64,000 nucleotides of DNA from a virus, in IMG/VR virus record IMGVR_UViG_3300025141_000030, one strand, 5' to 3'. The notes under the pieces are model-generated. The model saw only the letters and a list, made by a program, of their open reading frames with translations. It did no database searches and was not told where the DNA came from. Numbering within the stretch: the first letter of the stretch is position 1; each line of letters starts with the position of its first letter. This document shows, in pieces, positions 6,392-62,255 of the stretch. Position numbers and translations under genes: made by a program.

Positions 6392-6434
6392 GCTAATAAT
6401 TATCACATGAGAATCGCGAGGAGTTGACAAGATC

Positions 6435-22637: not shown

Positions 22638-22686
22638 GGATAATAGTTTTGTTTAATTGGTAGCGTTGGCGTTATAATTTACGACA

Positions 22687-23886
22687 ATGCTGTTGCACAT
22701 TTCATCCAGGTTGGTCGACGGAAAGTGTGGGATTACATTCTCATGTGATGATTCTGTGACGAGTGAGTCCACACCACCCCCTGGCGCGTGGACAGTGGGT
22801 GATCCCAGCTCCCTTCTCCGCGTCGAGGACCTAGCCGCAGTCTCCGGTTTAGAGATTGACCTCAGCCCCCCACAGCAGTTTCTTCGCGCCGCCGCGACGG
22901 TCGCGCCACTCAAGTCTGTGCCCCTAAAGTGGATGATGCCCGGCGATGTGTACCAGGACTACCTTAGGAGGCTCAGGAATGACTCCTGGGACATCCTGGA
23001 GCGCGGGATGGTGGAATACTATCATTCTTATTTCGCGACCACCAGGGACCTCCTGAGAGCCCTTGAGAGCGCGTCCATTAATTCGGTCACTCTTCAAAAT
23101 TTTATGCAGGGCAGCATTTCCCCTGGCCAGCGATCTGTCATTGCGTCATTCCGACCAGACGACACCGGATTTGCGCCGCTTGTGCGATACAACCAGGTTG
23201 GCTCTAGGACAGGTCGCCTGACTGAACGTTCGGGTCCACAGATTCTTCGCCTCAAGAGAGATTTTCGATCCATAATTCAGTCTAGGTTCGACGGCGGTCA
23301 CATAGTGCAGGTGGACTTTGTCTCCCTGGAGGCACGTATTGCCGCTGCGCTTGGGGGTATGGTTCCAGAAAGGGATATCTACACGCAGCTCTCTAGGACA
23401 GTCTTTGAGAATCGATATCCCAGGAGTGCCGTTAAGCTTGCCTGCCTCTCAGTCATCTATGGTGCCGGCCGCAAGCGCCTCGCCTCTCAATTGTCTGTCA
23501 ACCTCGAAGCCGCCGGGGATATTATTGAAAGGATCTCACGGGCTTTTGATGTTAAGAAGGTGTCGATGGAGCTGCTGAAAGACGCCGTGGAGACCGGATC
23601 GATCTCCAATCACTTCGGTCGAAAGATGCTGGCGACTGACAAGTCATCCCATATACTCTATAATAACTTTATTCAGTCGACAGGGGTAGATGTTGCAATG
23701 CACGGATTCCAGCAGATCGTCACCCGACTGAAGGGAGATAAAATCGTTCCTATTTTTATCCTACATGATGCCATAATTTTCGATGTTCATTCGAACAGCA
23801 TGGAAACACTGCGAAAGCTGGCCAACTGCCACATGCAGATAGATGGCTTTGAAGTTCCATTCTATGTTGATGTTTCTGGCTTTTAG
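22687..23886 (+). CDS. Minimal family A DNA polymerase (polymerase domain only)
   Basis: 'RTGRL', motif A 'VQVDFVSLEARI', motif B 'RSAVKLACLSVIYG', 'NNFIQSTG.D', motif C 'ILHDAIIF'; no recognisable exonuclease domains. Confidence 0.8.
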   Translation: MLLHISSRLVDGKCGITFSCDDSVTSESTPPPGAWTVGDPSSLLRVEDLAAVSGLEIDLSPPQQFLRAAATVAPLKSVPLKWMMPGDVYQDYLRRLRNDSWDILERGMVEYYHSYFATTRDLLRALESASINSVTLQNFMQGSISPGQRSVIASFRPDDTGFAPLVRYNQVGSRTGRLTERSGPQILRLKRDFRSIIQSRFDGGHIVQVDFVSLEARIAAALGGMVPERDIYTQLSRTVFENRYPRSAVKLACLSVIYGAGRKRLASQLSVNLEAAGDIIERISRAFDVKKVSMELLKDAVETGSISNHFGRKMLATDKSSHILYNNFIQSTGVDVAMHGFQQIVTRLKGDKIVPIFILHDAIIFDVHSNSMETLRKLANCHMQIDGFEVPFYVDVSGF

Positions 23887-27608: not shown

Positions 27609-29000
27609 ATGGAATCATTGAGTAACCCTAGTTTTGCTGAGCACGGCACATCATTTCAAGAGAAAATTATGCAGGCCCTCCTGTCAGATCACCAGTGGGC
27701 TGAGCAGATGTCTGAGGTCATTAAGATCGACTATTTTGACCTTAAACACCTGAAGTTCCTGTCCCAGAAATATTTTGATTATTATACGAAGTACCGAACT
27801 TTTCCCACGCTACAGTTGCTCGTGACAATTATTAGGGATGATCTTCGTGCGGGGACCGATGTAATTCTTCGTGATAAGATTGTTGAGTACCTACAGCGAA
27901 TTAAGCTGAATCCAGACATGGGCGACATTCAGTACGTCAAGGATAAGTCTTTAGACTTTTGTCGAAAGCAGGCAATGCGATCTGCGCTCGAGCAGGCCGT
28001 AGATATGATTGCCACTGGGCAGGATGAGAATGTTATTAACATTATACGGGAAGCCCTGACAGTTGGAACGACACCCTCTATCGGCCATGAGTTCATTGAG
28101 GACATGGAGAGCAGGTTTGTTCATATTGTCAGGCATGCCTGTCCGACTGGAATTAGGGAGCTGGATGACAGAAAGGTCATGAATGGAGGTCTTGCCAAGG
28201 GCGAGATTGGTGTCGTCGTCGCCAATACGGGAGTTGGAAAGTCCCACTTCTTGGTCCAGGCCGGTGCGACAGCCTTGATGAACGAAAAGAATGTAGTTCA
28301 CTATACTTTCGAGCTGTCAGAGGTCTCAACAGGATTGCGGTATGATTCACACATTTCGGATATCCCTATTGACGAGCTTCTTGAAAGAAAAGAAGAGGTG
28401 ATTGAAAAGTATAAGGGACTCGACTTGGGTCGGCTTATCATTAAGGAGTATCCAACTGGCTCCGCTTCGGTGGTGACGATTAGGAATCACATCGAGAAGC
28501 TGGCACTTAAGAATTTTAAGCCTGATGTGCTTATTATCGACTATGCAGACATCATGCGCTCTACGCGATCGTATGACTCCCTTCGCCATGAGCTTAAGTT
28601 AATCTACGAGGAGCTTAGGAATATGGCAATGGAACTAAAAATTCCGATTTGGACAGCCTCACAGGCTAATCGCTCCTCAGCGCAGAGCGACATCGTCGGC
28701 CTCGAGAATATGTCTGAGGCCTACGGTAAGGCGATGGTCGCTGACGTTGTCCTTTCATTGTCACGCAAGACCCACGAAAAGGCAGACGGCGCCGGCAGGC
28801 TCTTCGTCGCTAAGAACCGTGCCGGTCGCGACGGCTTGATTTTTCCAATTAAAATCGATACAGCGCAGTCTAAAATCCGTACATTAACAGAGAGCGAAGT
28901 CGTAGAGCTAGATAATAAAAAACGGGAATCTGAAGCCGACATGAAAGAGCTTCTCAGAAAAAAGTGGCGTGAGGTAGCTCAGGATAGAAAAGTCGTGTGA
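27609..29000 (+). CDS. dnaB: Replicative DnaB-like helicase (gp41-like)
   Basis: Walker A 'ANTGVGKS', 'YTFELS', 'IIDYADIM', 'WTASQANR', 'KNRAG.DG'. Confidence 0.9.
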   Translation: MESLSNPSFAEHGTSFQEKIMQALLSDHQWAEQMSEVIKIDYFDLKHLKFLSQKYFDYYTKYRTFPTLQLLVTIIRDDLRAGTDVILRDKIVEYLQRIKLNPDMGDIQYVKDKSLDFCRKQAMRSALEQAVDMIATGQDENVINIIREALTVGTTPSIGHEFIEDMESRFVHIVRHACPTGIRELDDRKVMNGGLAKGEIGVVVANTGVGKSHFLVQAGATALMNEKNVVHYTFELSEVSTGLRYDSHISDIPIDELLERKEEVIEKYKGLDLGRLIIKEYPTGSASVVTIRNHIEKLALKNFKPDVLIIDYADIMRSTRSYDSLRHELKLIYEELRNMAMELKIPIWTASQANRSSAQSDIVGLENMSEAYGKAMVADVVLSLSRKTHEKADGAGRLFVAKNRAGRDGLIFPIKIDTAQSKIRTLTESEVVELDNKKRESEADMKELLRKKWREVAQDRKVV

Positions 29001-31513
29001 GGGAGATTAGAGTGAATAAGAAGAGAGCATGTAGGGAGTCTTTAGAGTATTTTAACGGAGATGAACTTGCTGCAAGCATCTTTGTTACTAAATACGCCCT
29101 CACAGATTCGAATGGTGAGATTCTCGAGGCAACCCCTGCAGATATGCACAGGCGATTAGCTGCAGAATTCTATCGTATTGAAAGTAAATACGATAATCCC
29201 ATGTCTGAGCAGGAAATTTTTGACTTGCTGGACGGCTTTAGGCACGTGGTCCCACAGGGTTCGCCTATGGCCGGTATTGGAAATCCATATCAGATTCAGT
29301 CTATTTCTAACTGTTTTGTGATCGATGCCCCTGAGGATTCTTATGGTGGTATTCTAAAGAGCGATCAGGAGCTCGTGCAGATTGCTAAACGCCGAGGAGG
29401 CGTAGGCTTTGACCTCTCAACGATCCGACCTAAGGGACTCAACACCGCGAACGCAGCTCGCACCACTGACGGTATCGAGGTCTTCATGGACCGGTTCTCT
29501 AATTCCTGTCGTGAGGTAGCCCAGGGTGGCCGCCGCGGTGCTCTGATGCTGACAATATCTGTTCATCATCCACAAATTAGCGACTTTATAAAGATTAAGC
29601 GTGAGCTAACTAGGGTAACTGGCGCTAATATATCGATTCGTTTAACTGACGAGTTTATGAACGCAGTGTCGTCCGATGCCGACGTCCAGCTTCGATTTCC
29701 AGTGGATCGTGATGTAGAGCACATGATTACAGAGCAGGTTAACGCTAGGGAACTCTGGGATGAAATGATTGTGTCTGCACACGCCTCAGCCGAGCCCGGC
29801 CTTTTATTTTGGGACAATGCTAAGAGGAATACCCCTTCAGACATTTATCAGGATCAGGGATTCGGATCGGTCTCTACGAATCCGTGTGGAGAAATAATCT
29901 TATCCCCTTACGACTCGTGTAGGCTGATGCTGGTTAATCTTACTTCTTTCGTGGAGAATGCCTGGACAGATTCAGCATGTTTTGATTATGCTCATTTTGG
30001 TGAGACCGTGCAAAAGGCCCAGCGTCTTATGGACGACATGATTGACCTAGAGGTCGAGCAGATTGACGCTATTTTGGCTAAGATCGCAAGCGATCCTGAA
30101 TCTATTACTACCAAGGCTATTGAGATTGAGCTGTGGACTAAGATTAGGACCCAGGCCCTCCGTGGACGAAGGACGGGTTTGGGGATTACTGGCCTAGGCG
30201 ATGTATTGGCGATGCTGGGTATCCGATACGGCAGCCAGCAAAGTATTGAGGAGACTGAAAAGATTTATCGCTGGCTTTCCACTCATGCATATATTTCATC
30301 GATGGTCCTGGCAAAGGAGCGGGGAGCGTTTGAGGTTCACGATGCTGACATGGAGGCTGGTCACCCATTTCTCGAGAGAATTTTTGATTCCATCGATGAG
30401 ATGACGCCGGAATCAACCGCTTATAAGGCACGTCAGATGAACCAGCGCTGGGGTCGAAGAAATATTGCGATCACCACCACAGCGCCCGCCGGCAGCGTTT
30501 CGACCCTTACACAGACCACCTCTGGGATCGAGCCCGCTTTCATGTTGCATTACACTCGTCGTCGTAAAGTCGCTGATGGTGAGGAGCATGACTTTACGGA
30601 TGACATTGGGGATAGGTGGAAAGAGTATGACGTCTATCATCACAAGTTTAGGGAGTGGATGGAACATGTGTCAGCTACCGGTTCTCCTGAGGAGCTGATA
30701 GCCGCTAGTCCGTATGCCGATGCCACTGCGAATAATATTGACTGGGTTCAGAAGGTCAAGGTTCAAGCTGCTGCACAGCGCTGGGTGTGCCACGCTATAT
30801 CCAACACTACAAATGTGCCTGAAAACACATCCGTCGATACTATTAAGAAAATTTATGTCGCCGGCTGGGAATCGGGCTGCAAGGGCGTCACCGTCTATCG
30901 CGCTGAATGCCGCAGTGGCGTCTTGGTTGAAAAGAGGAACGAATACAGGGGCGACGATAAGTTCATATCACATCCGGCTCCAAAGAGACCTGATGTCCTG
31001 CATTGTCATATTCATCATGCTACAATTCAGGGGGAGAAGTGGACTATTTTAATAGGCCTAATGAACGATAAGCCGTACGAGGTTATAGGCGGACTTTCTG
31101 AGTTCGTTGAGATCCCTAGGAAGTACAAGGAGGGTAAGATTAAGAAACATCCTCGTAAGTCGATGAATTCTATCTATGATCTTTCATTTGGTGAGAATGG
31201 CGATGAGGTCATGCTTAAGAATATCGTCTCACTCTTTGATAATCCAAATTATTCGTCATTTACTCGAATGATCTCTTTAGGCCTGCGTCATGGCGCCCCA
31301 ATTCAGTATGTTGTAGAGCAGCTACAAAAGGATAAGGATGCGGAGCTTTTTTCATTTTCTAAGGTCGTTGCTAGGGTGCTCAAGAATTATATCATTAATG
31401 GTACGAAGACTACGACTGAAAAGACATGTCCCGGCTGCAACGCCATGGAGTCATTTGCGTATCAAGAGGGTTGCATAACATGCTCTAGCTGTGGCTGGTC
31501 TAAGTGCTCGTAG
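28997..31513 (+). CDS. nrdJ: Class II (B12-dependent) ribonucleotide reductase with C-terminal Zn ribbon
   Basis: 'SNCFV', 'RRGGVG', 'QGGRRGALM', 'TNPCGEI', 'APAGS', 'SGIEP', 'GCKGVTVYR', C-terminal CPGC..EGC..C..CGWSKC; no small subunit adjacent; start may be GTG 29012. Confidence 0.9.
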   Translation: MREIRVNKKRACRESLEYFNGDELAASIFVTKYALTDSNGEILEATPADMHRRLAAEFYRIESKYDNPMSEQEIFDLLDGFRHVVPQGSPMAGIGNPYQIQSISNCFVIDAPEDSYGGILKSDQELVQIAKRRGGVGFDLSTIRPKGLNTANAARTTDGIEVFMDRFSNSCREVAQGGRRGALMLTISVHHPQISDFIKIKRELTRVTGANISIRLTDEFMNAVSSDADVQLRFPVDRDVEHMITEQVNARELWDEMIVSAHASAEPGLLFWDNAKRNTPSDIYQDQGFGSVSTNPCGEIILSPYDSCRLMLVNLTSFVENAWTDSACFDYAHFGETVQKAQRLMDDMIDLEVEQIDAILAKIASDPESITTKAIEIELWTKIRTQALRGRRTGLGITGLGDVLAMLGIRYGSQQSIEETEKIYRWLSTHAYISSMVLAKERGAFEVHDADMEAGHPFLERIFDSIDEMTPESTAYKARQMNQRWGRRNIAITTTAPAGSVSTLTQTTSGIEPAFMLHYTRRRKVADGEEHDFTDDIGDRWKEYDVYHHKFREWMEHVSATGSPEELIAASPYADATANNIDWVQKVKVQAAAQRWVCHAISNTTNVPENTSVDTIKKIYVAGWESGCKGVTVYRAECRSGVLVEKRNEYRGDDKFISHPAPKRPDVLHCHIHHATIQGEKWTILIGLMNDKPYEVIGGLSEFVEIPRKYKEGKIKKHPRKSMNSIYDLSFGENGDEVMLKNIVSLFDNPNYSSFTRMISLGLRHGAPIQYVVEQLQKDKDAELFSFSKVVARVLKNYIINGTKTTTEKTCPGCNAMESFAYQEGCITCSSCGWSKCS

Positions 31514-32177: not shown

Positions 32178-32606
32178 ATGAAAGATTGGATACCTCCAAA
32201 ATCTCCACACGGCCTGATCCAGGAAGATTTATGGCCAGACCCGTGGAAAATTTTAGTTGCCTGCCTGCTCTTAAATCTAACGACTCGAAAGCAGGTTGAC
32301 AAGGTAATTGATGGGCTTTTTGAACGATATCCAGCTCCCAGAAGCCTTGCCACTGCGCAAGAGGAAGATCTCCATGGCATGCTTCGCTCGCTAGGTATGT
32401 GGCGTAAGCGTGCTAAGACATTGATCCGGTTTTCTAATGAATTTTTAGAAGCAGACTGGACAACCGCAAAGGACCTTTATGGTTGCGGGAAGTATGCTGA
32501 CGACGCGTGGCATATTTTTTGCGTGGGAGACTGGCGGCAGGTTGCGCCCAGTGATCACGCCCTAAACGATTATCATAATTTTTTAAAGGATGAATTAGAT
32601 GCCTGA
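32178..32606 (+). CDS. MBD4-like HhH-GPD DNA glycosylase (stand-alone catalytic domain)
   Basis: 'W.PP.SP..LIQE.L..DPWK.L.A...LN.T', 'LG....RAKT...FS.E.L...W', HhH 'LYGCGKYADD', 'IFC...W.QV.P.DH.LN.Y...L' follow the MBD4 glycosylase domain end to end; no Fe-S cysteines. Confidence 0.85.
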   Translation: MKDWIPPKSPHGLIQEDLWPDPWKILVACLLLNLTTRKQVDKVIDGLFERYPAPRSLATAQEEDLHGMLRSLGMWRKRAKTLIRFSNEFLEADWTTAKDLYGCGKYADDAWHIFCVGDWRQVAPSDHALNDYHNFLKDELDA

Positions 32607-33408
32607 GGGTCCCGAGTGTCGTCAAATCGGTATCCAGCTCGCGAAGAGGGTCTCGAATAGAAAGCTGGTCGATATTAAGATACTGAGCGGCCGCTATGAG
32701 AAGCACGGCCCACCCACTGGCTTTGACAAGATAATGGAGTGGACTCCGATTGGAATTCAAGGGGCCGGGGTACACGGTAAGTTCTTATTCTTTCTATTGG
32801 ACGCCGAGTGGAGCATTTGGTCTACGTTAGGAATGACAGGTTCATGGACAAATGAGAAGAATGAGCTGCACAGTCGCATTGAATTTGTCTTAAATGACGG
32901 ATCAATATTTTTTACTGATTCTAGAAATTTTGGGACCCTTAAGTTTGTGCGGGGAAAACAGCAACTTATTGACAAGCTGGAGTCCTTAGGCCCAGATCTT
33001 CTTGCTGAGGAGATTGATGACTTTAAATTTGCTGAGCATCTCATGAGAAAAAAGACAAAGACAATCGCTCAGGCACTTATGGATCAGGGCGTTGTGTCTG
33101 GTATCGGCAACTATGTAAAAGCTGAAGCGCTATACAATGCTAAGATATCGCCTCATCGCTTAGTGTCAGATTTAGATATACATGAGATGTCTGCACTAAA
33201 TACGTCAATTCGAAAGGTCCTAGTTGAGAGCTTTGAGTCTGGCGGTGCAACAATTAAAACTTATGCTGACATGAACGGTAAAATAGGAGAGTTCAGTCAG
33301 CGATTTGCCGTGTATGGACAGCGAAGCGATCCGCTCGGCAATGATGTTGTCAAGGAAAAAACAAAGGATGGTAGGATGACACATTGGGTGCCGTCCATCC
33401 AGAGATAA
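32599..33408 (+). CDS. Fpg/Nei family DNA glycosylase/AP lyase, zincless-finger type
   Basis: N-terminal catalytic 'MPEGPE', 'GKFL', 'LGMTG', 'D.RNFG', 'LGPD', H2TH 'LMDQ..VSGIGN...AE.L', C-terminal 'GRMTHW.P..Q' without CxxC. Confidence 0.92.
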   Translation: MPEGPECRQIGIQLAKRVSNRKLVDIKILSGRYEKHGPPTGFDKIMEWTPIGIQGAGVHGKFLFFLLDAEWSIWSTLGMTGSWTNEKNELHSRIEFVLNDGSIFFTDSRNFGTLKFVRGKQQLIDKLESLGPDLLAEEIDDFKFAEHLMRKKTKTIAQALMDQGVVSGIGNYVKAEALYNAKISPHRLVSDLDIHEMSALNTSIRKVLVESFESGGATIKTYADMNGKIGEFSQRFAVYGQRSDPLGNDVVKEKTKDGRMTHWVPSIQR

Positions 33409-33420
33409 AAAGGAGAAAAA

Positions 33421-33648
33421 ATGGCATATAAATTGAGTGATAATGTTTTACGTAGGATTGTTCAGGTGATGCAGGAGGGCCTGCTGACAGGAACCGATAT
33501 TACCGATCACATGAGGATGATTCGACTTGAGGAAAATGTTGATGATACGACCCAGCTTGTTTTAACTGATGAGTACAAGGGGATTGTGGAGAATCAGCAT
33601 GAGACAATGCTTCATGAGATTGAGAATATTAAGACGTCGGAAAACTAA
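33421..33648 (+). CDS. Hypothetical protein
   Basis: 75 aa, AGGAG RBS, stop/start overlap with the next gene. Confidence 0.7.
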   Translation: MAYKLSDNVLRRIVQVMQEGLLTGTDITDHMRMIRLEENVDDTTQLVLTDEYKGIVENQHETMLHEIENIKTSEN

Positions 33649-34025
33649 TGAGTGAGGACAGGCTTAATGACCTCTTTGAGATGAGGATTAATTTTATGGA
33701 GGCAATTAAAAAGAGCCCTGTTAATGGGGCACCCCCCTGGCCGCTGGATCTTTCCACAAAGGAGCACCAGCAGTATGTCAGGGATATTGCACTTCGTGGT
33801 GTGGAGGAGATGTTTGAGGCACTCCAGCACCTCAAGAATTGGAAGCCCCATCGCCAGACATCAGTCACTGATTTTGACAAGGATGAGTTTTTGGAAGAGA
33901 TAGTTGACGCCTTTAATTACTTTTTTGAGCTGATTCTACTGGCAGGTTTTACGGCTGATGATTTTTTTGAGATGTATGTTAAGAAGGACAAGGTGATTCA
34001 TGAAAGACTTAAAGCCGGATATTAA
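33648..34025 (+). CDS. All-alpha NTP pyrophosphatase (dimeric dUTPase/MazG-like)
   Basis: 'EEMFEAL...NWKP' and 'EEIVDAFNYF' acidic metal-binding motifs. Confidence 0.75.
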   Translation: MSEDRLNDLFEMRINFMEAIKKSPVNGAPPWPLDLSTKEHQQYVRDIALRGVEEMFEALQHLKNWKPHRQTSVTDFDKDEFLEEIVDAFNYFFELILLAGFTADDFFEMYVKKDKVIHERLKAGY

Positions 34026-34965
34026 TTCATTTAATGGACTTCAGGCCGTCCAGCGTCAGTTTTCAGACCTATTTTTTAGTTCTGACCTCCTATCCGTCGA
34101 TGAGAAGGAGGAGATGACAAGGAGCTTTGCCTTGGCACTTCACAGTGAAGTTAGCTCACTTGTGGGTGAGATTAGTTTTAAGGATCACATAAACTCTGGC
34201 CGGTCCGTAAATACGAAAAAGATCCTGTATGAAAGTGTCGACGCCTTTCGTTATATTTTAGCTATTTTGAATTTATGGGGACATAGTTCTGATGATTTTC
34301 TTAGCGCATTTCAGAATAGGGATTCATTTCTTCATACTAGATTTGAGCTGGATAAGCGAAAATGGGAGGGGCAACCTGTTATTGTTGTTGATGTGGATGA
34401 GGTGATCTGTACGTTCAGAAAGGGATTCACTGAGTGGCTGATAGATGAGAAGGGCATTGATGTCGATGTTAATTCCAAGGAATATTATCACGTTGTGCCA
34501 ATTAAAGGTTCAGGTCATTCGCCGGAGGGCCTTTTTGAGGAGTTTATCGATTCAGGTCATTTAAGGGACCTAGACATCATCTCTGAGACTGTCGGCGTTT
34601 TAAATCAGCTTAAGCTAATGGGATTTTGGATTCACCTGCTGACTGCTCGTCCAGATAAAAACCTGCAGTGCCTCTATGACACTTACTACTGGCTGGAGAG
34701 GTCAGGTTTAAACTTTGATCGAGTTTCATTTTCACCTGAAAAAATGATCTGGCTTACAAAGACAGAATACTTTGAAAGCGAGTCTGTCGTTTGTGCCATT
34801 GATGATTCTGTGAAACACACCATGGAGTATGCAAAGCACGGTGTTAAAGTTGCATCACCTAAGATGTCATACAATAAGGAGCTTCGAAATCAGGAGAATG
34901 TGACAATTTACAAGACATCTCAAGAGTTGCTTGATACAATAACACAGTTATCGGGAATGAGATAG
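34000..34965 (+). CDS. MazG-like domain fused to a HAD 5'(3')-deoxyribonucleotidase
   Basis: N-terminal 'LHSEVSSL...FK.H' and 'YESVDAFRY'; C-terminal HAD motifs 'VDVDEVI', 'LLTAR', 'K', 'IDDS'. Confidence 0.7.
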   Translation: MKDLKPDINSFNGLQAVQRQFSDLFFSSDLLSVDEKEEMTRSFALALHSEVSSLVGEISFKDHINSGRSVNTKKILYESVDAFRYILAILNLWGHSSDDFLSAFQNRDSFLHTRFELDKRKWEGQPVIVVDVDEVICTFRKGFTEWLIDEKGIDVDVNSKEYYHVVPIKGSGHSPEGLFEEFIDSGHLRDLDIISETVGVLNQLKLMGFWIHLLTARPDKNLQCLYDTYYWLERSGLNFDRVSFSPEKMIWLTKTEYFESESVVCAIDDSVKHTMEYAKHGVKVASPKMSYNKELRNQENVTIYKTSQELLDTITQLSGMR

Positions 34966-35225
34966 TGTCAGGCGACGAACGTGATTATAAGGACCTGTAT
35001 TTTAAGGTCCGCCGTGAGTCTTTCATTGCCCAGGTTGCTTACAGTAAGGGTATTGAGCTGGTGAATCTAATTCTTAATCCTGGATCGATTGGTAGCATCG
35101 AGGACTGTGCTCAGCAGTTTAGGGAATCGATTAAAAGCGCCCAACAGTTTATGGACCAGGTCGATGCTGGTGATACTGAGCTGGCAAATTATTTTGACAT
35201 TAGGGCCCGAGAAGATGCTTCTTAG
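34965..35225 (+). CDS. Hypothetical protein
   Basis: 86 aa, translationally coupled (TAGTG overlap). Confidence 0.5.
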   Translation: MSGDERDYKDLYFKVRRESFIAQVAYSKGIELVNLILNPGSIGSIEDCAQQFRESIKSAQQFMDQVDAGDTELANYFDIRAREDAS

Positions 35226-35379
35226 CGGCTCCCTAGTCAGTTTTATATTTAAAGAGTCAACCACCCTGGGAGTTGTGCTGGGTGACTCTGAGAAATCTAA
35301 ACAAATGTACCGTGTCTTATATGATAATAAGGTTGGTCATTTTTTTGAAAAACAACTTGAACCTATAGAAGGAGACTAA
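35215..35379 (+). CDS. Small hypothetical protein
   Basis: ATG 35215 within the 35089-35379 frame; short beta-rich (SH3/KOW-like) pattern; fills the gap before the next gene. Confidence 0.4.
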   Translation: MLLSGSLVSFIFKESTTLGVVLGDSEKSKQMYRVLYDNKVGHFFEKQLEPIEGD

Positions 35380-35380
35380 A

Positions 35381-35818
35381 TTGAAAGTTTACATTGCATC
35401 CCCATTTTTTAACCCCAAGCAGATTGATCAGGTCGAATATATTAAGGAGGCCCTCACCAAGTTGGGATATGAGTATTTTTCACCCAAGGATTATTTTGTT
35501 CTGGATCCTAATGCTACCGCCGAGGATCGAAAGAGGATCTTCGACGTGAATGTCGAGAAGATAGAGTGGGCAGATTTTGTCCTGTGTAATACAGAGGCCA
35601 AGGATCTTGGCACTATCTGGGAGGCTGGCTTTTCTCACGGTATTGGCAAGCCTGTCGTATTTTTTGCTGAGGGACTGCCGGATGGTAAGTTTAATGTCAT
35701 GCTCTCAGAGGCAGGAGTGTCAGTCAACACTTCTAGGGAGCAGCTTTATTCTTATCTTCTTGACTGTCGTGAGCAGGATTTTCTAATTAACATTCCATAC
35801 ACGGGGCAGACACAGTAA
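35381..35818 (+). CDS. Nucleoside 2-deoxyribosyltransferase / nucleotide N-hydrolase family protein (NDT/DNPH1/MilB-like)
   Basis: 'VYIASPFF', 'FSP', 'IF..N...I..AD', 'DLGTIWEAG', 'KPVV', 'NVML'; TTG start after GGAG. Confidence 0.85.
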   Translation: MKVYIASPFFNPKQIDQVEYIKEALTKLGYEYFSPKDYFVLDPNATAEDRKRIFDVNVEKIEWADFVLCNTEAKDLGTIWEAGFSHGIGKPVVFFAEGLPDGKFNVMLSEAGVSVNTSREQLYSYLLDCREQDFLINIPYTGQTQ

Positions 35819-36834
35819 TGATGTACAATAAACTAGAGTATGTTTGGATAGACGGCGGCATGCCGTGGGGAATTAGGTCTAAGATAAAGGTCGTGCCTGG
35901 TTTCGATCCTACTTTAGATGATGCCCCAACGTGGAGTTTTGACGGCTCTTCGACCCACCAGGCCACGGGTTCGGACTCTGACTGTATTTTAAAGCCAGTG
36001 AGAACGTATCCTCATCCCTATGCAGAGGATTCACTTATCGTTTTGTGCGAAGTGTTGACAGCACTGGGAGAGCCTCATGTTTCTAATCGAAGGACTGCGT
36101 TCTTAGATGTACTGGAAAAATATCGGGACGATGAGCCTTGGTTTGGGTTTGAGCAGGAGTACTCTATAATTCAAAATAATAGGCCTCTTGGATTTCCAGA
36201 CTTTGGCTTTCCCAGTCCTCAGGGAATCTACTACTGTTCAGTTGGCGGCGATCGATCTTTCGGTCGGCACATCGCTAACGCTCACCTAGATGCATGTCTC
36301 ATGGCGGGAATAAACATTTGTGGCACTAATGCCGAGGTTGCCCCGGGCCAGTGGGAGTTTCAGATCGGGGGTCCTAACATTGATGCTGATGTTGTGTGCG
36401 ACGATATGTGGGTGGCTCGATACCTGCTCCTTTACACGGCAGAGGAAGGCGGACTCACGGTTACTTTTGAACCTAAGTGTGTGCCTGGGGACTGGAATGG
36501 TGCCGGATGTCACACTAATTTTTCTACTAGTAAAATGCGTGAGCCCGGTGGCATGAAATACATAGAGGCCGCCTGTAACGCACTATCGGCCAGGACTAAG
36601 GAGCACCTAAGTAACTATGGAGATGATATTGAACTTCGACTGACAGGCGATCATGAGACCTGTTCATATCGAGAGTTTAAGTGGGGAGTCGCTGATCGGA
36701 CTGCTTCGATTAGGATTCCGCGACAGGCTGCGTTGGATGGAATGGGATATCTTGAGGATCGTCGCCCTAATGCTAATTGTGATCCTTATATTGTTGCCCG
36801 GTTAATGATTAAAACTGTGTGTGACGAGTTATAA
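35818..36834 (+). CDS. glnII: Glutamine synthetase type II
   Basis: 'EYVWIDG', 'RSK', 'WSFDGSST.QA.G..SD', 'PWFG.EQEY', 'YYC.VG', 'NAEV.PGQWEFQ.G', 'GDWNGAGCH.NFST', 'RLTG.HET', 'R.ASIRIPR', 'GYLEDRRP..N.DPY'. Confidence 0.95.
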   Translation: MMYNKLEYVWIDGGMPWGIRSKIKVVPGFDPTLDDAPTWSFDGSSTHQATGSDSDCILKPVRTYPHPYAEDSLIVLCEVLTALGEPHVSNRRTAFLDVLEKYRDDEPWFGFEQEYSIIQNNRPLGFPDFGFPSPQGIYYCSVGGDRSFGRHIANAHLDACLMAGINICGTNAEVAPGQWEFQIGGPNIDADVVCDDMWVARYLLLYTAEEGGLTVTFEPKCVPGDWNGAGCHTNFSTSKMREPGGMKYIEAACNALSARTKEHLSNYGDDIELRLTGDHETCSYREFKWGVADRTASIRIPRQAALDGMGYLEDRRPNANCDPYIVARLMIKTVCDEL

Positions 36835-36883
36835 ACTTAATTTAATTTTGATATATTGGTATATCTCGTAAAGGAAAACTAAA

Positions 36884-37816
36884 ATGACAAATTGCAGCAA
36901 CGGATTTATGCACATTGGTGTAGAGCTTCTTGATTCCCCAGACATTCCATTTACAACTTTTTGGAATTGGTTTAGGCAGACGTGGATCAGTCTTCATGAT
37001 GAAGAGTACGACCACACTAATCCAGAGCATATTAAGGCATGCCATGATGTCGCCAACAGAAGGGCACTTCCTACTCCTATGGAGGCGACCACCTTTCAGT
37101 TTAAGGTGACCGGCCTGTCGAGGGTAGCTCTTGCACAGATTACCCGGGGTCGTGTTGGATGGGCCTATAACGTTGAGTCACAGATGCCCCAGCACATTCG
37201 GCATTCTGTGACCGTCCCTAGGAACATCTACGAGCATCCTGAGTTTGGTGAGAGGGCAAGGAATTTGACTAGCCAACTGCAGGGACTTTATGATGAGATG
37301 TACGATGCTGGTATTCCGCCACAGGACTGTCGCTACATGACAATGCACGGCCAACAGACTAGCATGGTTTTTCATGTTAACTACGCTGCCCTTTTGGGCT
37401 ATTTTGCTCGTCGATGTGAAAATGGCCTGACTGATGAACTGAATTTAGTCGGCAGGATGATGCGGCATGCCCTGATCACCACTCACCTCAATTCAGATGG
37501 GACAGACAAAATTCCTGGATCTGGCTGGTCATTTTTAATTGGTAAGCTAGAGGCAATGGGAGGTGATAAGGCTTGCCTTAATAACGACCTTGTATTCGGA
37601 AATACGGGCAGGTCCCCCGCAGCGGGTGCCTGGGTTCCTAACTTACTTGATGGAACTTGTGATTATGACTTCTCTAAGTCTGCCTGGTACTACGAGCTCT
37701 GCGAGCTTCCTGAGCATCTCCTCTTCCCCGGCGAGCAGGAGATGATTAACGATTTTAAGTCTGTAGGATTTATTGGTCGACTCCAAAAATTGGACTCGAC
37801 TGCCAACAATGGCTAA
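36884..37816 (+). CDS. Divergent ThyX-fold (flavin-dependent thymidylate synthase-like) protein
   Basis: 'TPME.T.F.F.V.GLSR....QITRGR........ESQ', 'Y..M...GIP.QD.RY', 'VN...L..Y..RR.'; the RHR motif reads RGR. Confidence 0.75.
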   Translation: MTNCSNGFMHIGVELLDSPDIPFTTFWNWFRQTWISLHDEEYDHTNPEHIKACHDVANRRALPTPMEATTFQFKVTGLSRVALAQITRGRVGWAYNVESQMPQHIRHSVTVPRNIYEHPEFGERARNLTSQLQGLYDEMYDAGIPPQDCRYMTMHGQQTSMVFHVNYAALLGYFARRCENGLTDELNLVGRMMRHALITTHLNSDGTDKIPGSGWSFLIGKLEAMGGDKACLNNDLVFGNTGRSPAAGAWVPNLLDGTCDYDFSKSAWYYELCELPEHLLFPGEQEMINDFKSVGFIGRLQKLDSTANNG

Positions 37817-38099
37817 GAAAAAGCCAGCACATAAGAAAGCTGAACCGGAGACACAGTGCGGTGTTACAATTGGACAGGTCGTGTGGTGCACACTTTGTAC
37901 CGGTGCTGTAGGTCATGGTAGGATTGTTACTGTTCACCCCTTGAATAAGGAGGGTCCTGCCATGACCATTTATGACGAAATATCTGGTGCCTATCGTGTT
38001 GGCCTGATTGAGACTATAACTCCCGGCCGGCCGAAGAAGGATCAGATTTTAAAATTTATGACTGGCCTTGAAAAGAAGTGTTGCGAGGCGAAAAAGTAG
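37809..38099 (+). CDS. Hypothetical protein
   Basis: ATG 37809 overlaps the ThyX-like stop; 'GQVVW' beta-rich SH3-like pattern. Confidence 0.5.
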   Translation: MAKKKPAHKKAEPETQCGVTIGQVVWCTLCTGAVGHGRIVTVHPLNKEGPAMTIYDEISGAYRVGLIETITPGRPKKDQILKFMTGLEKKCCEAKK

Positions 38100-38665
38100 A
38101 GAAGATGCGGGAAAAGCAGTGGGTAATAATTTTTGACGGTCCTGACGGCTGCGGCAAAACTAACATTGCCCAGGCTCTTTCGCAGGCCTTAGGCATTCCC
38201 TACTTTAAAAATACTGACGAACACAGGTATTTCAGGAGCGACCCTGACTATTTTATCCACGCAATTCGATACGTGGACACATATTTTACCTCCTATCTTG
38301 AGACTACAAACAGCTCCGTAATATTAGATAGGGCATGGCCGTCGGAGTGGATTTACTCTAAGGCGATGGGTAGGCGGACAGACGAGAATGTCCTGTTGGA
38401 CCTTGATAAAAGGCACGCTAAATTAGGGACAATTATAATCAGTCCCTTTAGGACCGACTATAAAAACGTTGATGAGCAGTACGATGAGGTAAAACGTCGA
38501 CTGCCACAAATTGATAAACTGTACGAGGAGTTTGCCAAGTGGTCCAGGTGTCACGTTCTAAGAATAAACGTTGACAACGAGGACCTCCAGCACCAGCTTC
38601 ACGTAATTTCAGATTTTCTGCAAATTACAGGTAACAGCGCTGATAAATTCTATTATATTAGATAA
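38078..38665 (+). CDS. dNMP (thymidylate-like) kinase
   Basis: P-loop 'FDGPDGCGKT', 'ILDRAWPSEWIY'; start may be ATG 38105. Confidence 0.8.
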   Translation: MLRGEKVEKMREKQWVIIFDGPDGCGKTNIAQALSQALGIPYFKNTDEHRYFRSDPDYFIHAIRYVDTYFTSYLETTNSSVILDRAWPSEWIYSKAMGRRTDENVLLDLDKRHAKLGTIIISPFRTDYKNVDEQYDEVKRRLPQIDKLYEEFAKWSRCHVLRINVDNEDLQHQLHVISDFLQITGNSADKFYYIR

Positions 38666-38723: not shown

Positions 38724-39029
38724 ATGAGGCTAAGACAGTTCGCCGATGAATTAGGCATTTCATATTCGACTGCCCTTCGAATGTTTAGGAGGGATGAAAT
38801 TCCTGGTGCGTACAAGCTTCCTAGTGGCACAATTGTAATTCCTGAGGGCGCCATAGTGGCTCTAGGGCAACCCGATTTAGTTTCCGATGGAAACCTTATA
38901 GGTGCCATGGAGATCATTGAGGAGGCCTCTAGGGATGTCTTAGGGACTGAGGATGCCACTGATTTAATGCAGTTAATTCAGCGGGTTCTTGTGGAGTATA
39001 CTGGTGGGATAACTTATGACAGCGATTAG
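38724..39029 (+). CDS. MerR/excisionase-like winged-HTH protein (IS607 TnpA N-terminal-like, no recombinase domain)
   Basis: 'MRLRQFADELGISYSTALRMFRRDEIPGAYKLPSGTIVIP' matches the IS607 TnpA DNA-binding domain pattern; no YxRVS catalytic motif follows. Confidence 0.7.
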   Translation: MRLRQFADELGISYSTALRMFRRDEIPGAYKLPSGTIVIPEGAIVALGQPDLVSDGNLIGAMEIIEEASRDVLGTEDATDLMQLIQRVLVEYTGGITYDSD

Positions 39030-42000
39030 AGTCATAGAGGCCTCAGGGTCCAATGGTGCAATTCAGTTCGTTTCTGGCTCCGGTAATTTTGACGGAGATG
39101 CCCGCCTTGTATTTGACAGCACATCTGGCCTGCTGAAACTAACTGGGTCCCTTGAGTCCACACTTGGACTGAGCGGCTCCCTTACACAGCTCACCGACGG
39201 CACATCCTATCTCGTTGCTGGTGATAATATCACCATTGTGTCATCCTCTAACGGTGGAGTGACGCTTCACGCCGCCTCAAGCGGCGGCGGCGGGGCTGGA
39301 GATCCAAACGCATCTTTCGTGGTGATGTCCCTAACAGGATCACTTAATGCCGACAGGCAGCTGACAGCCGGCACTGGGTTAAACCTCAACGATGGGGGAG
39401 CCAAGGGTAACGTTACCTTTAGCGTAGATGACTCCACGGTTGCCACCATATCAGGCTCAACGTTTACGGGCGCCGTTGATTTTAATGCTGGCTTGAGCGG
39501 TTCACTTACACGACTTATTGGGGGTACCTCCTACCTGGTTGCCGGCAGTAACATCACCATCACCTCAGCATCCAATGGACAGGTCACCATCACGGGTCAA
39601 TCTGGTGACATAACAGACGTGACAGCCGGGACAGGCCTGACCGGTGGAGGATCATCAGGTGATGTCACCCTGGCTGCCGACGACTCCGTCGTCGCCACCC
39701 TGACAGGATCACAGTTCACCGGCCAGGTCGGCTTCCAGTCCAATGTGAGTACCAGCGGTTCTTTTATCGCCTCAGGTGACTCCACATTCTCAGGTCCGGT
39801 TTATCTGTCAGGCTCAGTTTCGGATTTCACTGCAACTGGTTCTGCCAAGTTCAATGCAGGTTTAAGCGGCTCCCTTACAAAGTTAGTGTCAGGACTGTCC
39901 TACCTGGTCGCTGGCTCGAACGTAACTATCACGTCGGCCTCCAACGGTCAGGTGACCATCGCCGGCACCGCCGGGGACATTACGTCAGTTACCGCAGGCA
40001 CAGGATTAACGGGTGGAGGATCGTCCGGGGATGTCACCCTAGGTGTTGATAATTCAGTTGTGGCCACCCTGACAGGATCCACTTTTACTGGGCCAGTGCA
40101 CCTATCAGGTTCAGTTTCTGATTTCGTTGCAACAGGTACTGTTCAGTTTAATGCGGGTCTTCGTGTTCCTGATAGTGCGGGTGATAATTTTTACACAGTC
40201 GCCGGCACATCATACAACATCGGATCAGATGTTACTGTTACTTTCCCCAACTTAACTGGTGATGATGAGCTCGTTACCCGAACTGCCACACAGGTCCTAA
40301 CCAATAAGACCCTGACCGCGCCTACTATTAATAATGCCCTCAACATAACAGCAGACGCAATTACAGGTTCGTATCTTCGAACGCTGGGTGACCTGAAGGT
40401 CGACGGTGATATGACGGTCTTTGGGACAGCATCGTTCGTTGACACTGAGCACATTCGTGTGGCTGATTCCTTAATCTTACTCAATTCTGGTGCAGTCGGT
40501 GCCAGGAGCGTCTCGGCCATTGCCTTCGCCTCCGGCTCAGCCACTGCCGACCAGGCATTCATCTTCGGTCCGGATGGTACTTCCACAGGTCCCCAACCAA
40601 CCTTCGCCTTCGCAAGGGTCGACGTTAAGGATGGTGCTCTCAACCCGGTCCTGGCATCCTTCAGCAACCTGGTCGATATTAAGGCAGCCGGCCTCAGCGG
40701 TTCCCTGACACGATTGTCAGACAACACATCCTACTTGGTCGCGGGAGACAACATAACAGTCACCTCGGCCTCCAATGGCCAGGTGACCATCGCAGGGACG
40801 GCTGGTGATATAACGGGAGTGGCGGCAGGTACTGGCTTAACAGGTGGGGGTACCTCCGGTGACGTCACACTGGCTGCCGACGACTCCGTCGTCGCCACCC
40901 TGACAGGATCACAGTTCACCGGCCAGGTCGGCTTCCAGTCTAACTTAAGTGTAACAGGTTCCGCACATTTTGCCGCCGGCTTGAGTGGCTCGTTAACACG
41001 GCTTATTGGTGGTGCCTCATACTTGGCCGCCGGCAGTAATGTCACTATCACATCAGCCTCTAACGGACAGGTGACCATCGCAGGAACGGCTGGTGACATT
41101 ACAGCTGTCACCGCTGGTACAGGCCTGTCCGGGGGCGGGACATCAGGTGACGTCGCTCTTGCGATAAGGGACTCCATAGTTGCTACCATATCAGGTTCCC
41201 AGTTCACCGGCCAGGTCGGGTTTCAGTCAAACCTCAGTGCATCTGGATCCTTAATAGCATCAGGAGACACGACGATTAACGGCCCAATATACCTGTCAGG
41301 CTCTGTCTCAGACTTTACTGCCACGGGTTCAGCTAGGTTCAATGCCGGACTAAGTGGCTCTTTGACACGATTGGTGGGTGGTGCTTCTTATATTGCCGCG
41401 GGTGACAACATAACGGTCACCTCAGCCTCTAATGGGCAAGTCATCATCTCTGGTCTTGCGGGTGATATTACATCGGTAACTGCTGGGACTGGACTGACAG
41501 GGGGCGGTGCCTCAGGCGATGTCACCCTTGCCGTTGATGACTCTGCAGTTGCCACCCTGACAGGATCACAGTTCACCGGCCAGGTTGGCTTCCAGTCCAA
41601 TCTTAGTGCATCTGGATCCTTAATCGCCTCGGGTGATACGACATTTAGCGGTCCAGTTTATCTGTCTGGATCAGTTTCGGACTTCACCGCTACTGGATCT
41701 GCTTCATTTAATGCTGGATTAAGCGGTTCACTCACACGACTCACTAGTGGTACCTCTTACTTGGCTGCTGGTTCTAATGTAACGATTACTTCTGCATCTA
41801 ACGGCCAGGTAACGATTGCCTCCTCCGGCGGAGGTGGAAGTATTTCGATATCGTCTGGCTCAACGACAGTGGGAACTGTTAGTAGTATAGACCTTTCACA
41901 GATGGGACTAGTTCAGAACCTAGGTGGGGGAAATGTTGCCGTTACCGGAGCAATAGGAAGCGCCGAGGACGGAACTTATACAGACGGCCTTTTTACTGAT

Positions 42001-45519: not shown

Positions 45520-45528
45520 GTGAATTAG

Positions 45529-48123: not shown

Positions 48124-48175
48124 AAGAAGAATTCTCTCTTTTTTAATATTTAACATTGGATATCGAGAGCATGAA

Positions 48176-60008: not shown

Positions 60009-60578
60009 ATGAGCCCAAGAGCGAATCCTGAGCTGGTCATTTTTACGGGACCCATGTTTAGCTCGAAGACGACTAGGCTTTTAGACATCTTGGATAGGTC
60101 TACCTATCAGAAAAAGAAGTCAATTTTATTTAAGGCCAGCATGGACAATAGGTATTCTAGGTCCGCCGTCTGCACCCATTCGGGTGTTAAGATGGAGGGC
60201 ATTGCTATTGATTCCGGATCTTCGCTGCTGGAATTCCTATCCCAGTCAGATGAGGTCTATGACACCATCGCCGTCGATGAGGCATTTATGATCGAGGGTG
60301 TGGCTGAGGTTCTTGTTTGGTTGTTTAAGAGGGGAGTTAACATTTATGTGTCATCGCTAGCACTTTCATATAGCGTTAGTGTTTTTGATGAGATGAGTGT
60401 TTTGTTACCGTGGGCAACAAGGGTTGAGGTCTGCACCGCAGTTTGTACAAAGTGTGGGAGTGACGCGTTTTATACCCATAAGAAATGTGACGATGGGAAA
60501 GTGATCGCCGTGGGCGGTGATGATATGTACGAGCCTAGGTGTTGGAAGCACCATCTTATTAGTGAGCAGGATGATTAA
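60009..60578 (+). CDS. tdk: Thymidine kinase (TK1 type)
   Basis: 'GPMFSSKTT', 'D.RY', 'VDEAF', Zn site 'AVCTKCG', 'VGG.D.YEPRC..H'. Confidence 0.92.
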   Translation: MSPRANPELVIFTGPMFSSKTTRLLDILDRSTYQKKKSILFKASMDNRYSRSAVCTHSGVKMEGIAIDSGSSLLEFLSQSDEVYDTIAVDEAFMIEGVAEVLVWLFKRGVNIYVSSLALSYSVSVFDEMSVLLPWATRVEVCTAVCTKCGSDAFYTHKKCDDGKVIAVGGDDMYEPRCWKHHLISEQDD

Positions 60579-61666: not shown

Positions 61667-61855
61667 GTGGAAATAATGATTGTAGTACTTTGTATCGCCG
61701 CCGCATTCTACGCCTGGAGTCGATCGAGAATGTCGACGCATCTCCTGAGGTTTCAAATTTATGTCCTGTCAAAGAGTATAACAGAATCCCTTCACCGCAC
61801 TGAAGAGAATTGTCGACAGATGGAGGGTAATAATGAGCCGCCCGACATGGGATGA
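61667..61855 (+). CDS. Small membrane protein
   Basis: 62 aa, hydrophobic N-terminus, AGGA RBS. Confidence 0.4.
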   Translation: MEIMIVVLCIAAAFYAWSRSRMSTHLLRFQIYVLSKSITESLHRTEENCRQMEGNNEPPDMG

Positions 61856-62255
61856 GATCTGGATGGGCGTTGCGATGATAATCGCCCGAAGGTCGGTCGA
61901 TCCAAGGAATAAGGTGGGCGCCGTCATTGTCAACCATGACGGTACACAGGTTCTCTCCGTGGGATATAATGGTGATTATAAGGGAGGGCCTAATATTGTA
62001 GAGTCTCACGATCCCGGGGAGTCAGGCATGATACACGCCGAGATTAATGCGCTCATTAAGCTGGACTACAACTATCCTCAGGACAAGGTGATGTACCTGA
62101 CACTGTCTCCATGTCGAATGTGTGCCAAGTCCATTGTTAACGCTGGAATTGGTGAGGTGGTCTACAGTCAGGAGTATCGAGACACCTCAGGAGTGGACAT
62201 ACTTCAGGCCGCTGGGATAAAAGTCAGGAAGTTCCCTTCGGATAACAATATTTAA
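61833..62255 (+). CDS. dCMP deaminase (ComEB-like)
   Basis: 'KVGAVIV', 'GYNG', Zn motifs 'HAEINA' and 'SPCRMC'. Confidence 0.92.
   Translation: MSRPTWDEIWMGVAMIIARRSVDPRNKVGAVIVNHDGTQVLSVGYNGDYKGGPNIVESHDPGESGMIHAEINALIKLDYNYPQDKVMYLTLSPCRMCAKSIVNAGIGEVVYSQEYRDTSGVDILQAAGIKVRKFPSDNNI

Follow-up and report, generated by a model that had tools for sequence, protein, structure and literature searches.

A conserved gene cluster centered on a divergent ThyX-fold protein in uncultured marine jumbo phages and its possible role in DNA base modification

The DNA analyzed here (the window) is a 64,000-nucleotide stretch of IMG/VR virus record IMGVR_UViG_3300025141_000030, a partial genome of an uncultured marine jumbo phage. 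Between the genes for ribonucleotide reductase (RNR) and ClpP on one side and replication genes on the other, positions 32178 to 38665 hold twelve open reading frames (ORFs), all on the plus strand. One of these encodes a protein with the fold of the thymidylate synthase ThyX, which we refer to as ThyXL, and the genes around it encode nucleotide-degrading enzymes, a kinase, a glutamine synthetase, and two DNA glycosylases. ThyXL and its constant neighbors form a conserved, previously undescribed module that most likely alters the phage pyrimidine pool and DNA. The features of the cluster are as follows.

32178..32606, plus strand: stand-alone MBD4-type HhH-GPD DNA glycosylase, 142 residues (MBD4-like; phmmer match to MBD4)
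32599..33408, plus strand: Nei/Fpg-family glycosylase/apurinic-apyrimidinic lyase, 269 residues (PF06831, 1.6e-19; PF01149, 3.7e-14; PF21025, 5e-8)
33421..33648, plus strand: conserved 75-residue protein, no family match, always between Nei and the MazG-like gene
33648..34025, plus strand: all-alpha (MazG/dimeric-dUTPase-type) deoxynucleoside triphosphate (dNTP) pyrophosphatase, 125 residues (phrog_12184, 1.4e-19; PF08761, 1e-4)
34000..34965, plus strand: fusion of a MazG/dUTPase_2-like domain and a HAD-type NT5C-type 5'-deoxynucleotidase, 321 residues (MazG-HAD; weak Pfam matches)
34965..35225, plus strand: 86-residue ORF, no family match, 59% identical in the closest relative (L001) only
35381..35818, plus strand: nucleoside 2-deoxyribosyltransferase-family (NDT) protein, 145 residues (PF05014, 1.1e-16)
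35818..36834, plus strand: type II glutamine synthetase (GSII/GlnII), 338 residues (NF041605, 446 bits; PDB 4BAX, 2.8e-112)
36884..37816, plus strand: ThyXL, ThyX-fold protein, 310 residues (PF02511, 2e-19)
37773..38099, plus strand: 108-residue ORF overlapping both neighbors, no family match, no ortholog in relatives
38078..38665, plus strand: P-loop (deoxy)nucleoside monophosphate ((d)NMP) kinase-like protein, 195 residues (phrog_761 "thymidylate kinase," 8.9e-11, residues 10 to 182)

An earlier note on this DNA had described about 12 contiguous, co-oriented, and overlapping genes, and the ORFs bear this out with seven overlapping junctions (32599/32606, 33648, 34000/34025, 34965, 35818, 37773/37816, and 38078/38099). 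The gene identities that it proposed (MBD4-like, Fpg/Nei, MazG/dUTPase, MazG-HAD, NDT, GSII, ThyX-like, and kinase) likewise agree with family or profile matches. The single promoter-like site that it placed at 32132 was not recovered: a sigma-70 scan found no site at that position, and site counts were about 2 standard deviations above those of shuffled sequences, with no clear candidate. Because all long ORFs of the window lie on the plus strand, the cluster is part of a long co-directional block, and an operon is not demonstrated. Searched as DNA, the cluster matched none of 50,697 cultured phages; the cluster DNA was detected in marine metagenomes from 18 studies.

The MBD4-like protein matches the catalytic domain of human and mouse MBD4 over residues 2 to 138 (phmmer, 6.2e-39). 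It keeps the catalytic Asp after the HhH motif (GCGKYADD aligned with GIGKYGND) and consists of the glycosylase domain only, without the N-terminal methyl-CpG-binding domain. The Nei/Fpg protein starts with MPEGPE (Pro2-Glu3) and has an H2TH domain. Its last 40 residues contain no Cys and the four-Cys zinc finger is not present, so that we read its C terminus as being of the zincless-finger type. It scored 173 bits against TIGR00577 (cut-off, 203), and every NCBIfam equivalog fell below its cut-off. The fused MazG-HAD protein shows a HAD motif (DVDEV) and matches to phrog_420/415; its matches to PF06941 (0.0015) and PF08761 (0.0065) are both weak, and the PF06941 match is clearer in the ortholog at locus L008. 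From its two domains, the net reaction of MazG-HAD would be the conversion of a dNTP to a deoxynucleoside, and the separate MazG-like pyrophosphatase is a candidate for excluding a canonical dNTP. The NDT-like protein scored 61.5 bits against PF05014 (cut-off, 28.8) and matched PDB 6EVS at 2.8e-15, keeping the catalytic Glu of the WE.G motif (IWEAG aligned with AWELG). The GSII match to NF041605 spans positions 2 to 332 of 333 (cut-off, 500 bits), and the matched structure is that of Streptomyces coelicolor GlnII. The kinase matched AAA_28 at 3.5e-6, and a comparison with the PDB gave nothing informative beyond the P-loop.

ThyXL scored 70.5 bits against PF02511 (cut-off, 24.8) and 51.1 bits against the equivalog model TIGR02170, below its cut-off of 87.9. 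Its AlphaFold2 model has a mean confidence (predicted local distance difference test) of 90.6, and the best Foldseek matches of the model were PolB (4p5b; E, 7e-9) and Thermotoga maritima ThyX (E, ~2e-8), with a probability of 1.00. A single-sequence search of the PDB with ThyXL found no match, and ThyX was reached by profile only. Residues were mapped by aligning the family profile to T. maritima ThyX, the numbering of which is used here. ThyXL retains E58, Q75, R78, R80, S88, R147, N163, and R174. Eight positions are substituted: H53 to L, H79 to G, E86 to V, R90 to M, Y91 to P, R165 to A, N169 to G, and H178 to G. The altered catalytic residues noticed earlier are thus real in the alignment, and where ThyX has the motif RHR-x7/8-S and the loop S-x-R-Y, ThyXL reads RGR-x8-S and SQMP. 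The residue aligned with the folate/flavin-stacking His53 is Leu62, at a position that is nearly invariant Leu in the family. The change of R90 to Met and of Y91 to Pro is found in every member of the ThyXL clade, and H53, R90, and Y91 have been lost as a block in all of them. In ThyX, strict conservation and a critical role are reported for Tyr91 and Ser88; Y91 forms hydrogen bonds with H53 and R90, and its mutation slows methylation and flavin oxidation 1,000-fold (PMC11940539). In the Mycobacterium tuberculosis and Helicobacter pylori enzymes, the equivalent of Tyr91 acts as a lid that shields uracil C5 and flavin N5 from solvent; in ThyX, R174 contacts the substrate dUMP (PMC6514825). Judged by these defining residues, ThyXL is not a ThyX thymidylate synthase.

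The protein nevertheless appears to be under selection. Thirty-nine ThyXL homologs, down to 48% identity, share 47 invariant columns, some of them in a C-terminal extension of 100 residues whose conserved motifs include polar and charged residues; ThyXL is therefore under enzyme-like constraint. In a quick maximum-likelihood tree, ThyXL fell on one side of a split (Shimodaira-Hasegawa-like approximate likelihood ratio test [SH-aLRT], 97 to 98), with canonical ThyX on the other, where the second ThyX copies of these phages were also placed. The family is small and environmental: at an E value of ≤1e-30, its relatives make up 25 clusters among 1.84 billion representatives, with further matches mostly restricted to the ThyX core. 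No full-length relative was found in 50,697 cultured phages, a search of the ESM Atlas returned generic ThyX clusters only, and a search aimed at longer, fused ThyXL proteins gave no match. Besides ThyXL, a larger group of noncanonical Thy1 proteins (P0150 to P0266) was seen. These are long (270 to 350 residues), with Leu at the His53 position, RTR, RQR, or RAR in the motif, and G-G-R-D replacing S-x-R-Y; most lie in a 41-row tree group (SH-aLRT, 91, below the starred threshold) that is apparently another uncharacterized ThyX offshoot.

Ten related jumbo phage records (G001 to G004, G013 to G015, L006, L007, and L013/14) encode both ThyXL and a canonical ThyX; one of them, G001, is 318 kb long and 93% complete. 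The canonical Thy1 proteins scored 126 to 165 bits in the seven records that were scored, and the copies in L006 and L007 read GHETPFE and KHR...SARY. The four records that have ThyXL alone are fragments of 12 to 37% completeness. A search of five large related records for ThyA found none. Because a canonical ThyX coexists with ThyXL in ten relatives and the five records searched yielded no ThyA, ThyXL is unlikely to be an ordinary dTMP synthase. These sequence comparisons support the view that it is a neofunctionalized paralog of a working synthase.

To identify the partners of ThyXL, gene order was compared across 49 ThyXL loci. Two clades were apparent. In the jumbo phage clade (58 to 88% identity), the order is Nei, the 75-residue protein, the MazG-like protein, MazG-HAD, ThyXL, the kinase, and NDT. 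Nei/Fpg orthologs (37 to 83% identical) are kept across this clade, the 75-residue protein has syntenic orthologs in about 17 relatives, synteny of the MazG-like gene is also kept, and MazG-HAD orthologs are 39 to 68% identical. The kinase orthologs (52 to 64% identical) lie 0 to 2 kb downstream of ThyXL, directly after it in most of the clade. The distant clade (29 to 43% identity) is made up of 58-kb genomes that are complete and have terminal repeats; their constant order is NDT, an HD-type YfbR/DatZ-like nucleotide hydrolase, ThyXL, and a 140-residue protein that matches no described function. NDT lies 0.5 to 2.3 kb upstream of ThyXL in all loci of this clade, and overall the flanking sequence fetched contained it for 41 of 44 ThyXL loci, making it the most constant partner, a point that goes beyond the earlier note. 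The minimal invariant set shared by both clades, the backbones of which are unrelated, is thus NDT, an enzyme that degrades dNTPs or deoxynucleoside monophosphates (dNMPs) toward nucleosides, and ThyXL. The degrading step is taken by MazG-HAD in the jumbo phages, which have a DnaE polymerase, and by the HD enzyme in the 58-kb phages; that two unrelated solutions converge on this step argues for exclusion of a canonical nucleotide from the pool. The jumbo clade adds the MazG-like protein, the dNMP kinase, and Nei.

The expectation that the whole gene set would stay together in related jumbo phages was therefore correct for the pool-editing core and incorrect for two of its members. GSII was found at 1 of the 49 loci (L001) and the MBD4-like gene at 3 (L007 and L013/L014), and in relatives both shift position between ClpP and Nei/Fpg; L052, a further relative, carries GSII and also the first part of an MBD4-like gene, each in a different place. 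GSII had been proposed as a nitrogen-assimilating enzyme embedded in the pathway. It is instead an accessory metabolic gene outside the pathway, which comes and goes and also occurs in unrelated huge phages, with 46 to 48% identity in four uncultured phages of 630 to 735 kb (LR756501, LR756503, LR745206, and LR756502). A role as the amidating step was considered and rejected, since the gene is absent from 48 of the 49 loci. GSII is also present in further IMG/VR jumbo phage contigs (L051 to L053) and seems to be an auxiliary metabolic gene that recurs in very large phages. The MBD4-like gene is an accessory repair gene, the product of which probably acts on G:T mismatches or on mismatches of G with 5-hydroxymethyluracil (hmU). 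The idea that the two glycosylases attack unmodified host DNA was rejected, as MBD4- and Nei-type enzymes act on mismatches and lesions.

In the 58-kb phages, a variable island lies downstream of the 140-residue gene and is followed by a dUTPase. Three of these islands were as follows.

L024, 10879-15147: choline/APH-type kinase, cytidylyltransferase, BCCT transporter (2e-113), and LicD, a full licABCD-like set
L028, 10867-13736: LicD, epimerase/reductase, and IspD/TarI
L022, 7322-12056: Caps_synth glycosyltransferase, EamA transporter, and LicD

This layout resembles known hypermodification clusters such as those of RB69 and DLP3 (PMC13326640), which suggests that the product of ThyXL carries a hydroxyl group in these phages. 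The islands may serve to hypermodify DNA with phosphocholine or a polyol phosphate, or else to modify the host surface.

Several lines of evidence point to cytosine as the likelier target, which the earlier note had left at a noncanonical pyrimidine. The first comes from the MBD4-like gene. Full-length matches to it among cultured phages were limited to 13 records, all of them Xp12-type phages. The DNA of Xp12 contains 100% 5-methylcytosine (5mC) (PMC7653180). The Xp12 homolog (QNN97216, 160 residues) is 45% identical to the window protein (7e-33), and its gene lies immediately upstream of genes for a PRA-PH-type all-alpha NTPase, a ThyA-type protein, and dCMP deaminase. QNN97216 is annotated as a hypothetical protein in its record (L056:8914-9396; MT664984.1, 46973-47455) and is an MBD4-type glycosylase.

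Second, two jumbo phage relatives that carry the MBD4-like and Nei pair without ThyXL, L058 (G016:C1:85374-86225) and L059 (G017:C1:194302-195156), encode a C5 DNA cytosine methyltransferase (397 to 407 residues; 84% identical to each other), an enzyme not found in the ThyXL-bearing records examined. Because a C5 methyltransferase and ThyXL alternate beside it, the MBD4-like gene appears to accompany whichever enzyme makes a 5-substituted cytosine. In addition, one 423-residue ORF on a 2.6-kb Logan contig (P0128; L057:628-1899) joins ThyXL (residues 3 to 282) with an MBD4-like domain (residues 297 to 412; 33% identity, 9e-20); a search for further ThyXL-MBD4 fusions returned P0128 itself only. 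Third, in the MetaGPA study, which isolated virome DNA with fully modified cytosine by physical selection, Thy1 was enriched on the cytosine-modified contigs (49 selected versus 275 unselected; p, 1.8e-40), together with dUTPase_2, Nuc_deoxyri_tr2, AAA_28, PRA-PH, and dCMP deaminase (PMC8670742, Supplementary Table 2); its main text does not mention Thy1 or ThyX (PMC8670742). The Pfam families Thy1, dUTPase_2, Nuc_deoxyri_tr2, and AAA_28 are all matched by genes of the cluster described here.

Taken together, we favor, at a little better than even, the reading that the conserved core is a prereplicative base replacement pathway of the kind found in T4 (5-hydroxymethylcytosine [hmC]) and Xp12 (5mC), with a ThyX-fold modifier. 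Its members would be Nei, the 75-residue protein, the MazG-like dNTPase, MazG-HAD, the NDT-like protein, ThyXL, and the dNMP kinase, with ThyXL as a neofunctionalized ThyX-fold flavoprotein in the place of a ThyA-fold modifier. In the proposed scheme, one or more MazG-like enzymes would cut the competing canonical dNTP to the dNMP, and MazG-HAD and the NDT-like protein would degrade the surplus to nucleoside and base. ThyXL would then substitute C5 of a pyrimidine dNMP, most plausibly converting dCMP to 5-methyl- or 5-hydroxymethyl-dCMP; alternatives for this step are the conversion of dUMP to 5-hydroxymethyl-dUMP (hm-dUMP) or a folate-independent 5-hydroxylation. The adjacent kinase would phosphorylate the product, and the phage DnaE would incorporate it. 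Nei, and the MBD4-like protein where present, would repair the deamination and oxidation products of the modified base (G:T and G:hmU). Most of what was observed would be reconciled by a product with a 5-hydroxymethyl or 5-hydroxy group, and the loss of the solvent-shielding Tyr and the folate-stacking His would fit either capture of water by the methylene intermediate or folate-independent flavin hydroxylation. Supply of dTTP would be separate, through a canonical ThyX in relatives and through two enzymes that, as the earlier note had seen, lie outside the cluster, about 21 to 23 kb downstream.

60009..60578, plus strand: thymidine kinase (TK), ordinary dTMP supply (PF00265, 1.7e-36)
61833..62255, plus strand: dCMP deaminase, ordinary dUMP/dTMP supply (phrog_174, 2.4e-47)

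Of the modified-nucleotide system suggested in that note, then, the divergent ThyX as a paralog, its conserved partners, and a link between MBD4 and 5mC still speak for the idea, and the MBD4-like glycosylase and GSII as fixed parts do not. A wider proposal is more tentative, and we put it at somewhat short of even: ThyXL may found a virus-specific family of ThyX-fold flavoenzymes that add a one-carbon or hydroxyl group at C5 of a pyrimidine destined for DNA, giving in this phage a genome with 5mC or hmC that is guarded by the MBD4-like and Nei proteins and, in the 58-kb phages, a base decorated with phosphocholine or polyol phosphate by LicD-type enzymes.

To our knowledge, no virus uses the ThyX fold for DNA base modification, and all phage prereplicative pyrimidine replacements that we know of (hmC, 5mC, hmU, and 5-hydroxycytosine) use ThyA-fold enzymes. 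In T4, the hmC pathway uses the dCMP hydroxymethylase gp42, the dCTPase gp56, and the dNMP kinase gp1, and td, cd, and tk coexist with it. The present cluster, with ThyXL as a putative modifier and with a candidate dNTPase and kinase, resembles this pathway, which combines a modifier of the thymidylate synthase superfamily, an all-alpha dNTPase, and a dNMP kinase of its own with a separate ordinary dTMP supply (thymidylate synthase, dCMP deaminase, and TK). It differs in the fold of the modifier and presumably in its cofactor chemistry (flavin dependent here) and in its extra NDT and nucleotidase steps, and the window contains no glucosyltransferase. Xp12 has a similar order, in which an MBD4-like gene is followed by an all-alpha NTP pyrophosphatase and a thymidylate synthase superfamily gene, with dCMP deaminase nearby. 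However, the Xp12 modifier, which we take to be a dCMP methylase, is of the ThyA fold (PF00303, 3e-40) rather than the ThyX fold. The Xp12 block also lacks NDT, Nei, the MazG-HAD fusion, and an adjacent kinase, and its NTPase shows no pairwise homology to the MazG-like or MazG-HAD protein of the window.

Canonical ThyX (T. maritima TM0449; PDB 1O26 family) shares its fold and nucleotide-binding residues with ThyXL, from which it is set apart by the replaced catalytic residues, the added C-terminal extension, the sub-cut-off score, and the separate clade. The closest structural match, PolB (PDB 4P5B; template modeling score, 0.68 to 0.71 on the target), is a UMP/dUMP methylase of polyoxin biosynthesis and the only ThyX paralog with a changed role described in the literature searched (PMC5954106). 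In contrast to ThyXL, with which it has 16 to 17% identity, it is bacterial, serves antibiotic synthesis, and is still a methylase. For 5-hydroxycytosine in RB69 and DLP3, a ThyA-fold, flavin-using 5-hydroxy-dCMP synthase is clustered with a sugar-activating kinase/nucleotidyltransferase and transferases (PMC13326640). This case is similar in that an enzyme of the thymidylate synthase superfamily has switched cofactor and chemistry and in that the neighboring genes resemble the islands of the 58-kb phages. It differs in the ThyA fold and in its decoration with arabinose rather than by LicD-type phosphotransfer, and the window has no such island. The literature searched held no description of a phage ThyX paralog, a flavin-dependent dCMP methylase, or phosphocholine on DNA.

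A number of observations weigh against a ThyX-fold base replacement pathway that acts on cytosine. Substrate, cofactor, product, and each step are assigned from family membership and linkage, and the evidence for cytosine is associative. The MetaGPA enrichment concerns the whole Thy1 family rather than the ThyXL clade specifically. Most ThyXL genomes have no MBD4-like gene, and this gene also travels with ordinary C5 methyltransferases; none is encoded in the window, and one could be encoded elsewhere in the genome of this phage. The ThyXL-MBD4 fusion is a singleton on a short contig and may be a real fusion or two merged adjacent genes. The retained R174 would agree with uracil as the substrate, plain 5mC is at odds with a decorated hydroxyl in the 58-kb clade, and the lic-like island might modify the host surface instead of DNA.

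The role of ThyXL itself is also open to a simpler account, the least improbable of the alternatives though an unlikely one, in which the cluster is an ordinary nucleotide supply and repair block without DNA modification. ThyXL would then be a genuine, if divergent, flavin-dependent dTMP synthase in which the C-terminal extension supplies the lost residues. The nucleotide pool would be cleaned, and nucleotides salvaged, by MazG, HAD, NDT, and the kinase, as happens in many large phages, and Nei and the MBD4-like protein would serve general base excision repair. The location of the cluster between RNR/ClpP and replication genes and the retained phosphate- and base-binding Arg, Gln, and Ser residues would agree with this. 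ThyXL is the sole Thy1 protein in the window, which contains neither a canonical ThyX nor ThyA, and in the complete 58-kb phages it is the only thymidylate synthase-like gene, again with no ThyA, so that it could simply be the dTMP synthase there. Some cells do carry two thymidylate synthases, as in the control case of Corynebacterium. However, H53, R90, and Y91 are jointly lost in every ThyXL member, mutation of Y91 costs 1,000-fold, and canonical ThyX has been kept alongside ThyXL in ten relatives across 58 to 73% divergence. An ordinary supply block would also leave unexplained the linkage to NDT and a nucleotidase, the LicD-type islands, the fusion with MBD4, and the parallel with Xp12.

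It is also conceivable that the same architecture acts on thymine or uracil, with ThyXL converting dUMP to hm-dUMP or 5-hydroxy-dUMP and with MazG-HAD and NDT destroying dTTP, dTMP, and deoxythymidine, as in hmU phages of the SPO1/SP8 type, the product being decorated after replication in the small-phage clade. We rank this next and consider it unlikely as well. The dUMP site is retained, including the Arg matching R174, family annotation describes NT5C-type HAD enzymes as deoxynucleotidases that act on pyrimidines, and the islands of LicD, kinase, and cytidylyltransferase genes need a hydroxyl acceptor and are followed by dUTPase. The ThyX reaction has an intermediate with an exocyclic methylene group, the trapping of which can give hm-dUMP, and this counts in the same direction. 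Against this, canonical ThyX in the jumbo relatives and TK with dCMP deaminase in this phage amount to a working dTTP supply that would compete with 5-hydroxymethyl-dUTP, the links of the MBD4-like gene point to 5-substituted cytosine, and MetaGPA ties Thy1 to cytosine modification. An anti-defense or pool-buffering role against nucleotide-depleting or -deaminating immunity, with ThyXL binding or sequestering a nucleotide and having no methylase activity, would account for the several nucleotide hydrolases, the two glycosylases, and the missing canonical catalytic residues, but it is very improbable given the strongly conserved ThyXL-specific motifs, including polar and charged residues of the extension, that suggest catalysis and a dedicated kinase directly downstream that fits nucleotide production rather than sequestration.

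Elsewhere, the window encodes a gp19-like tube protein, a T4-type baseplate protein, gp32, RecA, a flap endonuclease, DnaB, two tail sheath paralogs, a class I/II RNR, ClpP, and DnaE. The tail sheath paralogs are adjacent (3266-9476; 1,041 and 1,013 residues), each about 1.5 times the size of T4 gp18. Two polymerase genes are present (19659-23886 and 56196-59750): a DnaE-type polymerase of 1,184 residues and a 399-residue protein that matches the C-terminal part of family A polymerases only and is preceded by a 992-residue ORF without a family match. The large subunit of RNR (28997-31513) has a C-terminal TSCPD domain (PF12637), and its gene overlaps that of ClpP by 23 nucleotides. The kinase and DnaE are separated by three giant genes (39016-53133; 2,167, 864, and 1,521 residues), which have carbohydrate-binding-like repeats. 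In relatives such as L008, this position is taken directly by NDT and then DnaE, and the segment looks like an inserted fiber block.

If the preferred reading of a ThyX-fold base replacement pathway is correct, these phages would represent an independent invention of base replacement, with flavin chemistry, and the ThyX fold would be seen for the first time in the modification of a genome. It would explain the enrichment of Thy1 on cytosine-modified virome contigs, and the RGR...SQMP signature together with NDT would be a marker for modified genomes in marine metagenomes. Modified genomes of this kind withstand many of the enzymes of restriction and CRISPR systems and can distort surveys that depend on sequencing. 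The association of MBD4-type glycosylases with 5mC phages suggests that deamination repair is encoded by the phages themselves when their genomes are methylated, and the decoration in the 58-kb phages would, if real, be an unknown class of DNA hypermodification. The enzymes of the cluster could also become tools for modified-base chemistry.

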